From: Escherichia coli
GTDB lineage: Bacteria > Pseudomonadota > Gammaproteobacteria > Enterobacterales > Enterobacteriaceae
DNA length: 64,000 nucleotides
Direction: 5' to 3' (one strand)
Assembly (NCBI RefSeq): GCF_044647545.1
Contig: NZ_CP172818.1
The notes under the pieces were generated by a model. That model searched no databases. It was given only the letters and a program-made list of their open reading frames with translations, and was not told the origin of the DNA. A program made the position numbers and the translations under genes. Positions 6,317-56,110 of this stretch are shown here, piece by piece. Each line of letters starts with the position of its first letter. Positions within the stretch are counted from its first letter, which is position 1.

Positions 6317-10182
<3,866 letters not shown>

Positions 10183-43597: not shown

Positions 43598-43674
43598 GCG
43601 CCCTTAGCTCAGTTGGATAGAGCAACGACCTTCTAAGTCGTGGGCCGCAGGTTCGAATCCTGCAGGGCGCGCCA
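43598..43674 (+). tRNA. argU: tRNA-Arg (anticodon UCU)
   Basis: Cloverleaf GCGCCCTTAGCTCAGTTGGATAGAGC...GGTTCGAATCC...GCGCCA; anticodon loop CTTCTAA. Confidence 0.9.
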
Positions 43675-44972: not shown

Positions 44973-45311
44973 TCATCGCCATTGCTCCCCAAATACAAAA
45001 CCAATTTCAGCCAGTGCCTCGTCCATTTTTTCGATGAACTCCGGCACCATCTCGTCAAAACTCGCCATGTACTTTTCATCCCGCTCAACCACGACATAAT
45101 GCAGTCCTTCACGCTTCATACGCGGGTCATAGTTGGCAAAGTACCAGGCATCTTTTCGTGTCACCCACATGCTGTACTGCACCTGGGCCATGTAAGCCGA
45201 CTTTATGGCCTCGAAACCACCGAGCCGGAACTTCATGAAATCCCGGGAGGTACGAGTATTGCCGGAAGCGCGGGCTGTATCCGGATGCAGAGTCTTATCC
45301 GTGGAAATCAA
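44973..45311 (-). pseudogene. exoD: Lambda exonuclease-like C-terminal fragment
   Basis: 112-codon ORF with exo-like C-terminus, no intact N-terminus. Confidence 0.55.
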
Positions 45312-45349
45312 ACGCGCACTACTGGCTGGTTACCAACCTGTATCAGAAC

Positions 45350-45562
45350 ATGCGGGCCAATGCGTTGACTGACGCGGAATTACGGCGCAAGGCTGCCGAT
45401 GAACTGTCCTGTATGACCGCACGAATTAACCGTGGTGAGGCTATACCTGAACCAGTAAAACAACTTCCTGTCATGGGCGGTAGACCTCTAAATCGTGCAC
45501 AGGCTCTGGCGAAGATCGCAGAAATCAAAGCTAAGTTTGGGCTGAAAGGAGCAAGGGTATGA
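45350..45562 (+). pseudogene. peaD: Replication protein P-like C-terminal fragment, stop overlapping ren start
   Basis: 70-codon ORF ending in ATGA overlap with ren, the lambda P-ren junction arrangement. Confidence 0.5.
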
Positions 45563-45707
45563 CGGGCAAAGAGGCAATTATTCATTACCTGGGGACTCAT
45601 AAGAAATTCTGTGCGCAGGACGTTGCCGCGGTAACAGGCGCAACGGTAATCTGATCTTACCCAGCAATAGTGGACACGCGGCTAAGTGAGTAAACTCTCA
45701 GTCAGAG

Positions 45708-46016
45708 GTGACTCACATGACAAAAACAGTATCAACCAGTAAAAAACCCCGTAAACAGCATTCGCCTGAATTTCGCAGTGAAGCCCTGAAGCTTGCTGAA
45801 CGCATCGGTGTTACTGCCGCAGCCCGTGAACTCAGCCTGTATGAATCACAACTCTACAACTGGCGCAGTAAACAGCAAAATCAGCAGACGTCTTCTGAAC
45901 GTGAACTGGAGATGTCTACCGAGATTGCACGTCTCAAACGCCAGCTGGCAGAACGGGATGAAGAGCTGGCTATCCTCCAAAAGGCCGCGACATACTTCGC
46001 GAAGCGCCTGAAATGA
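45708..46016 (+). CDS. insE: IS3 transposase OrfA
   Basis: 102 aa [35 protein letters not shown]. Confidence 0.9.
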
Positions 46017-46879
46017 AGTATGTCTTTATTGAAAAACATCAGGCTGAGTTCAGCATCAAAGCAATGTGCCGCGTGCTCCGGGTGGCCCGCAGCGGCTGGT
46101 ATACGTGGTGTCAGCGGCGGACAAGGATAAGCACGCGTCAGCAGTTCCGCCAACACTGCGACAGCGTTGTCCTCGCGGCTTTTACCCGGTCAAAACAGCG
46201 TTACGGTGCCCCACGCCTGACGGATGAACTGCGTGCTCAGGGTTACCCCTTTAACGTAAAAACCGTGGCGGCAAGCCTGCGCCGTCAGGGACTGAGGGCA
46301 AAGGCCTCCCGGAAGTTCAGCCCGGTCAGCTACCGCGCACACGGCCTGCCTGTGTCAGAAAATCTGTTGGAGCAGGATTTTTACGCCAGTGGCCCGAACC
46401 AGAAGTGGGCAGGAGACATCACGTACTTACGTACAGATGAAGGCTGGCTGTATCTGGCAGTGGTCATTGACCTGTGGTCACGTGCCGTTATTGGCTGGTC
46501 AATGTCGCCACGCATGACGGCGCAACTGGCCTGCGATGCCCTGCAGATGGCGCTGTGGCGGCGTAAGAGGCCCCGGAACGTTATCGTTCACACGGACCGT
46601 GGAGGCCAGTACTGTTCAGCAGATTATCAGGCGCAACTGAAGCGGCATAATCTGCGTGGAAGTATGAGCGCAAAAGGTTGCTGCTACGATAATGCCTGCG
46701 TGGAAAGCTTCTTTCATTCGCTGAAAGTGGAATGTATCCATGGAGAACACTTTATCAGCCGGGAAATAATGCGGGCAACGGTGTTTAATTATATCGAATG
46801 TGATTACAATCGGTGGCGGCGGCACAGTTGGTGTGGCGGCCTCAGTCCGGAACAATTTGAAAACAAGAACCTCGCTTAG
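46013..46879 (+). CDS. insF: IS3 transposase OrfB (DDE)
   Basis: 288 aa DDE integrase-core ORF in -1 frame relative to orfA. Confidence 0.9.
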
Positions 46880-47189
46880 GCCTGTGTCCATATTACGTGG
46901 GTAGGATCAACCAGCATAAATCAGGCTGCGGCTAAAATGGCACGGGCAGGTCTTCTGGCTATCGAAGGTAAGGTCTGGCGAACGGTGTATTACCGGTTTG
47001 CTACCAGAGAAGAACGGGAAGGAAAGGTGAGCACGAATCTGATTTTTAAGGAGTGTCGCCAGAGTGCCGCGATGAAACGGGTATTGAGGGTATATAAAAG
47101 AACATCAATGGGTACACAATGATGAAACAGGTGAGTTGAGTTCAAACTGTAGTACAATTCTCTCCAGTTTGAACAGGAAAGAATATTCT

Positions 47190-53458: not shown

Positions 53459-54653
<1,195 letters not shown>

Positions 54654-56110
54654 TTAGTGAAGTCATTTTTGTCAAGCAGGTTGATTTTGTAATCAACGAA
54701 AGTAGACATATTTTTGTTGAAGTAATAGGTTGCACCTACATCAACATATTTGACTAAGTCCTGATCGCCCCATACTCCAAGATCCTTACCTTTAGATTGC
54801 AGGTAAGCAACGGACGGACGCAGACCGAAATCGAACTGATATTGTGCAACAGCTTCGAAGTTTTGGGCTTTATTAGCAACGAAGTGATCAGCAAATACAG
54901 TCATATTCTGGGTTTCAGAATAGGTAGTGGCCAGGTAAATGTTGTTAGCGTCATATTTCAGACCTGCGGCCCAAACTTCTGCATTTTTACCGGAAGCAAA
55001 TACTTCAGGAAGAACTTTCCCTGCATTAACTTGAGTGTCGGTACGATCAGATTTCGCATAAGTTGCACCGATACCGAATCCTTCGTATTCATAGGTAGCA
55101 GAGAAACCGAAGCCATCACCGTTACCTTCAGTGTAGTTATCGAAATCGCTACGATCGTTTTTGCCTTGGTACTGAATCGCAAAATCAAGACCATCAACCA
55201 GGCCAAGAAATCATAGTTACGGTAGGTTGCAACACCGTTGGTACGACCATTCATGAAGTTGTCAGCGGAAGCCCAGGAATCGCCACCCCATTCAACTAAC
55301 ATATCGGTATAAGCTGCGGCATCATAAGCAACACCGTAGTTACGGCCATAGTCAAATGACCACTCGTTATATTTCAAACCGGCGAAGGTTAAACGGGTTT
55401 TTTCCTGGTTTTCACCTTCGGGCTTGCTGGCGTCGAGGTTGTATTCAAACTGACCAAAACCAGTCAGTTCGCTGGTGATTTGGGTTTCACCTTTGAAGCC
55501 AAGACGGGCATAAGTAGTATCACCATCATCTGCATCATTAGAGGAGAAGTAGTGCTTAGCATTAACTTTCCCGTACAGATCCAGCTTGTTACTGTCTTTA
55601 TTATAAATTTCAGCTGCCTGAGCAGACATCGCCATTAGTACTGATGCAGCTACAGCAGAAATTGCCACTGTTAATTTTTTCATCGTGAGCCCTTTTTTTG
55701 AACTATTATTAAAAAATGATGTCACTGCGCGATAAATATTCATCTAATCAATGTGATTATTTCAAGATGTAAGTTTTGGTTTCTCGTTTGATTTGTGAAG
55801 TAGATCTCTATTTTTATCTGAACTTTTTTCTATCGAATCCTATTCATGGCTCTTGGCTGAATAAAAATAAATCTATTAGCCAATTTATATTAACGGCTGT
55901 TATTTATAAGTGCTCTATAATTTGAAGGTTCAATTTAAACCGGCTAAAAATAACACTGGAAATTATTTTTTGGTTATTTGTTGAGATTTGCTTATGTATT
56001 TGTAGTGGTGTTTTCAATACTCGGTAGCATTCTCTCAAATATCATTTAGTGGTTTACGTACGTAAAAAATTGGTTATGCTGTTAAGAGTGGTTACTTCGT
56101 CACACAGCTT

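Follow-up and report, generated by a model that had tools for sequence, protein, structure and literature searches.

In Escherichia coli K-12, renD of the cryptic prophage DLP12 is interrupted by a copy of IS3, annotated in NC_000913.3 as 'insertion sequence:IS3C' at 566777-568034 within renD (b0542). The Ren protein of phage lambda protects against Rex exclusion, and the gene disrupted at this locus is its counterpart. Work by Sekine and colleagues in 1996 and 1999 is said to have described IS3 circles with a 3-bp spacer, as well as linear IS3 with 3-nt 5' overhangs of donor sequence. Spacers of 3-4 bp belong to IS911, IS150 and IS629. More generally, the circles formed by IS3-family elements during copy-out/paste-in transposition contain a spacer taken from the donor flank between the two ends of the element (PMC7780238). 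The sequence analysed here (the window, 64,000 nucleotides in full) carries an IS3 in a ren-like frame with unequal flanking triplets. It is compared below with K-12, with alleles free of the insertion and with other IS3 sites. The account as a whole, namely that the element is IS3C of K-12, that its odd triplet derives from a donor copy and that it reached the window by carry-over from a template, is held with slightly better than even confidence.

The IS3 element in renD and its K-12 counterpart

The features of the locus are listed in Table 1. The 1258-bp element runs from a TG to a CA terminus, and its length, termini, inverted repeats, two ORFs and sequence identity all agree with those of the IS3 group. 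The inverted repeats are 39-nt imperfect arms with 72% complementarity, and the last 4 nt of orfA are shared with orfB, which lies in the -1 frame; RefSeq labels identical orfA/orfB pairs as a single 'programmed frameshift' transposase, the frameshift being predicted.

Table 1. Features at the renD::IS3 locus, with positions given in the window.
Feature	Position	Strand	Description
renD 5' fragment	45559..45651	+	31 codons, stop codon supplied by IS3 left end (ORF 45559-45654)
Left flanking triplet ATC	45649..45651	.	Deviant copy; T at 45650 in place of the C of empty sites
IS3	45652..46909	+	1258/1258 identical to K-12 IS3B, IS3C, IS3D and IS3E
IRL	45652..45690	+	Starts TGATC; reads TGATCTTACCCAGC...; paired with IRR
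orfA (insE)	45717..46016	+	99 aa, helix-turn-helix; Pfam HTH_Tnp_1 (E=5e-10); = K-12 insE3
orfB (insF)	46013..46879	+	288 aa, DDE integrase-core; Pfam rve (E=5e-28), rve_2, HTH_21; = K-12 insF3
IRR	46871..46909	+	Ends GATCA; reads ...GTGGGTAGGATCA; paired with IRL
Right flanking triplet ACC	46910..46912	.	Native target; empty-site alleles GTA-ACC-AGC
renD 3' fragment	46910..47122	+	= K-12 'gene fragment 2 of renD', 568035-568247

Three bases were added at the site, and the left and right triplets, ATC and ACC, differ at the middle base instead of forming a direct duplication. The first-pass annotation had described the same imperfect duplication, and this description was upheld, as moving either boundary of IS3 by up to 4 bp produced no valid perfect repeat. 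The sole exact 3-bp repeat among the shifted boundaries needs 4 bp to be trimmed from the right inverted repeat; this boundary was ruled out because exactly the termini in Table 1 are common to the five K-12 copies and to more than 20 other IS3 copies.

The splitting of a ren-like frame, also reported earlier, was confirmed by joining 45559-45648 to 46910-47122, which gives an uninterrupted ORF of 100 codons (303 nt). This reconstructed ren is 100.0% identical to the gene for a 'Ren-like exclusion protein' of phage Turner, and its identity to the ren/Ren genes adjoining replication gene P in lambda-like phages is about 94%; renD lies after a P fragment (peaD), as lambda ren lies downstream of replication gene P. 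In a Pfam search, no family matched the reconstructed Ren. The K-12 counterpart of the 5' fragment is 'gene fragment 1 of renD' (566684-566776). Alignment to an uninterrupted ren gene, which had been proposed as a check, recovered the target site. Once IS3 and ATC are taken out, at least 40 E. coli genomes with an uninterrupted gene match the window allele at 100.0% over 740 nt, and at least 21 empty-site genomes match the correspondingly edited K-12 allele at 100.0% over 764 nt. These empty sites read GGTAACCAGC where IS3 sits in renD::IS3 carriers. Since the empty-site alignments restore an intact ren, they place the target at GTA-ACC-AGC, with a single entry of IS3 into ren and the usual addition of three bases; on the same alignments ACC on the right is the native sequence and the change (C>T at 45650) lies in the left triplet.

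By sequence comparison, the element is the annotated IS3C (insE3/insF3) that splits renD of cryptic prophage DLP12 in E. coli K-12, and it is already known. The window is colinear with MG1655 at 551-578 kb, and the DLP12 setting can be recognized from argU (43598-43674) and from the IS5 in nmpC (nmpC::IS5, 53459-54653). The neighbours shared with IS3C of MG1655 (b0540-b0541) are argU, intD, xisD, exoD', peaD', emrE, ybcK and nmpC::IS5. Zero differences from MG1655 were found over 45646-46941, with the same site, orientation and junctions, and K-12 therefore also has ATC-IS3-ACC. A query with the left junction identified 302 carrier genomes, which among the matches listed were K-12 laboratory strains plus a few other records. 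All of the carriers checked have T at 45650, and the left triplet of EK2009 is also ATC. Among natural relatives of K-12 with renD::IS3, GCA_001269105.1 is without nmpC::IS5 and reads GTAA-IS3. For a perfect ACC-IS3 left junction on the K-12 haplotype, the best match was 99.8%, with no exact one among the 302 carriers, and the sole hit of a metagenome scan permitting either base was a K-12 contig, which has the ATC form. Taken by itself, the element is of minor importance, being a pseudogene disruption that is already annotated in the most thoroughly studied of bacterial genomes.

Origin of the insertion in the window

Unlike the surroundings of IS3C in MG1655, the flanks in the window have non-K-12 SNPs, which match ST405-like strains without the insertion. 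Across 5.9 kb, 78 differences separate these flanks from K-12; their haplotype is not that of K-12, with 31 SNPs in 45080-45645 and 12 in 46942-47113, and the non-K-12 SNPs closest to IS3, G at 45645 and A at 46942, lie 7 bp from its left end and 33 bp from its right end. The comparison with the ST405-like genome WP5-S18-ESBL-08 gave 0 mismatches across all colinear parts over the full window length, and the renD 5' fragment is 100% identical to the ST405-like allele as far as 45649. In WP5-S18-ESBL-08, ren is intact and the lambdoid prophage at argU is complete, and the extra DNA of this strain is absent from the window. The window carries the K-12 exoD'/peaD' deletion junctions (44948, 45252), IS3 and nmpC::IS5, and its K-12-only segments show 0 SNPs against K-12. 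The close K-12 relative UMNF18 retains the DNA that is deleted in K-12 at exoD'/peaD', and these junctions are therefore specific to the K-12 lineage. In addition, 8701-9032, at the K-12 rhsD locus, holds 330 bp of G/A-rich junk consensus matching neither K-12 nor WP5-S18-ESBL-08.

Natural recombination cannot combine foreign SNPs with K-12 structure to within 7-20 bp at each of four junctions, and we interpret the mismatch between the flank haplotype and K-12 as an assembly chimera, not as a separate insertion event. The IS3 in the window is very probably a template carry-over from a K-12-templated or K-12-polished assembly, and it may not exist in the sequenced strain, which would be ST405-like with an intact ren. 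The T at 45650 would persist in such an assembly because no alignment of reads from an empty site can span the false junction. True presence of IS3 in the ST405-like strain, whether through an independent insertion at a shared hot spot or because the K-12 insertion was transferred, appears very unlikely, even though IS3 prefers GTAA-type targets (two independent site pairs share 8/9 target bases) and DLP12-type prophages hold many IS3 insertions. It needs the K-12-specific exoD/peaD junctions and nmpC::IS5 to stand on a 0-SNP, intact-prophage background, with non-K-12 SNPs only 7 bp and 33 bp from the left and right junctions, and the same odd T would need a second origin. The junk consensus at 8701-9032 also argues against it, as does the outcome of genome, protein and metagenome look-ups, in which no other record linked the flank haplotype of the window to IS3; protein look-ups with the window-specific renD fragments gave no IS3-linked locus. 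The record closest to the window junction, BHUCD02, is of K-12 length with mixed SNPs and is therefore uninformative.

An assembly templated on K-12 lays K-12 insertions and deletions over the SNPs of another strain, and structural scans of such records would report K-12 features in strains without them. At least two RefSeq 'complete' genomes, BHUCD02 and BS-01, look similarly chimeric.

Origin of the deviant triplet

The first-pass annotation had attributed the unequal triplets either to an old insertion or to a point mutation after insertion. The former is not supported: the insertion in renD appears to be recent, because the K-12 flanks are identical to the empty-site alleles (100.0% over 764 nt), K-12 and UMNF18 are nearly identical (1 base in about 7.2 kb adjoining the site, 12 in about 15 kb) and all K-12 IS3 bodies are identical. 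The mismatched flanks are real and probably date from the insertion event rather than from its age.

A candidate source of the odd triplet is the sibling copy IS3B in yaiT, which is flanked as GTTGTAATC-IS3-ATCAGC with a perfect ATC duplication; its empty site was confirmed as GTTGTAATCAGC in uninterrupted yaiT. The deviant renD triplet, ATC, equals the target duplication of IS3B. Among the other K-12 copies, IS3E is flanked by GTC/GTC, IS3D by CAC/AAA, and the left-end tip of IS3A has been replaced. IS3B shares with IS3C an identical IS body and similar 9-bp targets in yaiT and renD (GTAATCAGC and GTAACCAGC), and it differs from IS3C in its perfect duplication, its location 175 kb away, its opposite chromosomal orientation and its presence in more genomes (373 compared with 302 for renD::IS3). 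With its presence in more genomes, IS3B is therefore plausibly the older of the two, predating IS3C.

The yaiT and renD targets are 8/9 identical, for which the empirical frequency is 2.3e-4 per position and a 17-site model gives 1.2e-3 per pair. A special donor-target relationship between them was considered and dropped, as an unrelated site pair in different genomes, TAATACAAC and TAAAACAAC, is also 8/9 identical; the likeness therefore reflects target choice, for which the target preference of IS3 suffices. A G is found six bases from the IS end in 52% of 92 left-end and 67% of 27 right-end flanks, the triplet centre is A/T in 74% and 81% of the same flanks, respectively, and IS3 flanks often have GTAA directly to the left of the triplet or overlapping it. 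Insertion targeted to inverted repeats, as for IS911, was likewise rejected: the target resembles positions 6-14 of IRL (7/9), but the insertion lies inside this segment and not at the tip, and other IS3 sites have no resemblance to IRL.

Similar anatomy was observed at other IS3 sites in a survey of 30 unique sites with both flanks, approximately 21 of them interpretable, which was small and not designed in advance, with statistics that are post hoc. Perfect 3-bp repeats were present at 16 of the 30 sites and a 4-bp repeat at one. At least three other insertions, and probably four, have one native and one deviant triplet with nothing else changed. The K-12 copy IS3D reads CAC-IS3-AAA over an empty site of ...GGCACTGCC (also written ...CCAGGCACTGCCGC), with exactly three extra bases, a native left triplet, a right triplet differing at two bases and 697 nt otherwise unchanged. 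The site designated L088 reads CTC-IS3-CGC over CCATTACGCCTCC, with three extra bases and 700 nt otherwise unchanged, and EC931, 3 bp from the L088 site, reads TTA-IS3-CTA. Site L123 reads CTA-IS3-CAT over GGAGCTACAGGG, with three extra bases in total. The deviant triplet is located at the left end in two cases and at the right end in three, and such triplets make up about one-fifth of natural insertions in this small sample. No empty sites were found for L078 and L090, and for L124 no clean resolution was obtained against the one empty allele that was found. A scan of representative genomes with the IS3 left end yielded mostly contig ends and relatives from other genera, with one usable site.

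These observations could be explained if the triplet were carried over from the donor. IS3 would leave the donor as a circle or linear intermediate bearing three donor-flank bases, either as spacer or as 5' overhang. Strand transfer with a 3-bp stagger would produce a 3-nt gap at each junction, opposite a 3-nt donor flap; if the flap were joined instead of being replaced by newly synthesised target sequence, a heteroduplex triplet would result, and replication would then give one daughter with the arrangement donor triplet, IS3, native triplet, as at renD. The enzymology may involve flap ligation or one-ended strand transfer. To judge from the triplets found, the foreign triplet evidently need not be complementary to the target, and simple annealing followed by ligation is therefore probably only part of the mechanism.

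The odd triplet is most likely derived from a donor copy and is not a product of slow decay, and for the T at 45650 in particular a donor triplet gained at insertion is given about an even chance. The point mutation proposed earlier, in which a perfect ACC/ACC duplication later underwent a random C>T change in its left copy, is possible as far as the change itself goes, since a single transition is enough, C>T is the commonest spontaneous change and the T, present in every carrier checked, could predate the K-12 isolate at any time. It is nevertheless disfavoured and considered unlikely: one change among the six duplicated bases stands against none in 764 nt of flank and one in about 7.2 kb relative to UMNF18, and the chance of a single random hit falling in six duplicated bases rather than in about 770 is near 0.008. 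The change also recreates the ATC triplet of IS3B, and the perfect-repeat form was found neither among the 302 carriers nor in the metagenome scan. The recurrence of the anatomy elsewhere points the same way, as IS3D and L123 have two altered bases per triplet (IS3D within flanks otherwise unchanged over 697 nt) and at L088 the corresponding position has undergone a G>T transversion; on these alignments, point mutation does not account for two-change triplets within untouched flanks. Ectopic gene conversion, in which an IS3C/IS3B heteroduplex extended past the IS3 left end and copied the T into the flank, would draw on bodies that are 100% identical and on left flanks, GTAATC and GTAACC, that agree at 5/6 bases beside IRL, and it would yield the T of IS3B. 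The tract must, however, stop inside a 4-bp microhomology, and the explanation fails for IS3D (AAA against CAC), L123 and L088, for which there is no known sibling with a similar flank. Conversion does not account for cases in which the flank has no similarity to a sibling, and for renD it is regarded as decidedly unlikely. Several IS3 copies have unrelated flanks, and three left flanks share the right flank CGCAGGGGTCGG, as would be expected where two IS3 insertions were fused by IS-IS recombination (inversion or deletion) and no duplication is to be expected. At renD this is extremely improbable and is refuted by the empty-site alignments, in which the flanks are the two halves of one ren, contiguous except for exactly three extra bases. 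Causes beyond the donor triplet, random mutation and conversion from IS3B take up the remainder of the probability. A Dcm/Vsr deamination hot spot was also examined and discarded, as neither AACCTGA nor CAACCAGC is a CCWGG site.

The donor origin has its own difficulties. A rate of a quarter of insertions should have shown in classic IS3 experiments, a 3-nt flap lacking complementarity (AAA opposite CAC) is a biochemically awkward substrate for ligation, and, since GTAA-C is common to the left flanks of yaiT and renD, a short conversion from IS3B could yield the same T. Among renD, IS3D, L088, EC931 and L123, a candidate donor was identified for renD only. The broader proposal, that IS3 fairly often inserts without a true duplication at one end and that the triplet there is donor flank, is accordingly put forward tentatively, at somewhat less than an even chance. 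The literature covered by our search, with the key IS3/IS150 papers and the 1998 review outside its scope, gave no account of the renD triplet mismatch or of retention of a donor triplet or spacer by IS3. Should donor-derived triplets prove correct, imperfect IS3 repeats would be unfit as a clock for insertion age, and deviant triplets could trace parent-daughter relations among IS copies, IS3B (yaiT) being the parent of IS3C (renD) in K-12. The same could perhaps extend to further elements that move by copy-out/paste-in and have a circle spacer of 3 bp.

Comparison with other transposons

Among IS3-family elements, the nearest parallel is IS2, which reportedly retains circle-junction spacer bases at its left end, as described by Lewis and Grindley in 1997 and by Lewis and co-workers in 2001. 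In both elements, bases of the donor flank would move with the element and end beside one of its ends. In IS2, however, one or two spacer bases are said to accompany a complete 5-bp duplication as an addition to it, at the left end only, whereas at the IS3 sites the foreign three bases replace one copy of the duplication and may do so at either end. No added spacer of the IS2 type was seen at renD, IS3D, L088 and L123, where only three extra bases in total are present. Beyond this family, Tn7 has 3-nt donor flaps that are thought to be removed, and the TTAA overhangs of piggyBac pair with the target and are ligated without synthesis. The intermediates proposed for IS3 would resemble both in that short 5' single-stranded extensions face the gaps left by staggered strand transfer. 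The flaps of piggyBac are always complementary to the target, whereas for IS3 flap retention is what we infer from the junctions, with triplets such as the ATC at renD.

Mosaic composition of the window

The window as a whole is a mosaic. Over positions 1-64000 it shows 0 mismatches to the ST405-like strain WP5-S18-ESBL-08 in all colinear parts, and its structure is that of K-12: segments of 2.56 kb, 1.36 kb and 5.4 kb carried by WP5-S18-ESBL-08 are absent, and the K-12-only DNA is retained with 0 SNPs. This combination of ST405-like identity and K-12 structure is indicative of an assembly that was templated or polished on K-12.

Several local features of the window were also characterized (table below). 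The 5-7 kb deleted at the K-12 exoD'/peaD' junctions are still present in UMNF18, a close relative of K-12, and in WP5-S18-ESBL-08. The low-complexity stretch has no match in K-12 or in the ST405-like genome and has the look of a collapsed consensus. The IS5 copy within nmpC is bounded by a perfect TTAG target duplication, and the adjoining sequence (55001-55500) differs from K-12 at 91 positions; this segment has no local ST405-like counterpart, and its divergence may have arisen by cross-mapping from a paralogous porin gene.

Coordinates of the features discussed in the window and in K-12
Feature	Position	Remark
exoD'/peaD' deletion junctions, K-12-specific	44948 and 45252 (window)	non-K-12 SNPs within about 20 bp
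G/A-rich low-complexity sequence, about 330 bp	8701-9032 (window)	where K-12 has the rhsD element
IS5 in nmpC, 1195 bp	53459-54653 (window)	100% identical to K-12 IS5B
K-12 IS3D (locus L009)	NC_000913.3 1094245-1095502	empty site at L133 340-360

Related records in public data

Two further RefSeq chromosomes labelled as complete, BHUCD02 (L004, NZ_CM183444.1) and BS-01 (L125, NZ_CP172816.1), possess the K-12 structure, with K-12 coordinates also found in BHUCD02 and mixed or foreign SNPs in both. BS-01 additionally contains many frameshifts, and its left junction is garbled, reading GCAAGCGTAA followed by IS3. Both records look like further K-12-templated assemblies. The record IMGVR_UViG_2711768031_000003 (L074 1900-3300) carries DLP12 with IS3 in renD and an nmpC gene without IS5; its DLP12 differs from that of K-12 by 38 SNPs, and its left renD junction reads GCAACCGTAA followed by IS3, the TC being absent. 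This genome, which is probably the same as GCA_001269105.1 (L127, CXWP01000010.1), may represent a natural K-12 relative with the renD insertion.

IS3D of K-12 is a simple insertion between GGCAC and TGCC. Its left-hand triplet is CAC and its right-hand one AAA; the insertion added three bases, but the right triplet is foreign. The same CAC/AAA flanks recur in several unrelated assemblies (L061, L062, L064 and L069). The left flank of IS3D was also observed in a contig of a metagenome-assembled genome labelled Flavobacterium psychrophilum (L049, QFQM01000612.1), and a K-12-like contig of 4.64 Mb is present in a metagenome collection (L060, VOFL01000126.1); these two records likely reflect contamination of public data by laboratory E. 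coli.

Target choice and clustering of IS3

Among all the IS3 loci collected, a preference was observed for G at position -6 from either end of the element, and the triplet frequently had GTAA on its left. At its middle base the duplicated triplet favoured A/T, with C in only 9 of 92. Several distinct insertions in different strains (L088, L126, L129-L132) lie within a few hundred bases of one another in the ybcN-ninE-ybcO and P-ren modules of DLP12-like prophages, including two in ybcN only 3 bp apart and one in gene P of FT130, which has the duplication AAC and is located some 190 bp upstream of the insertion point in renD. This part of DLP12-like prophages seems to be a regional hot spot for IS3.
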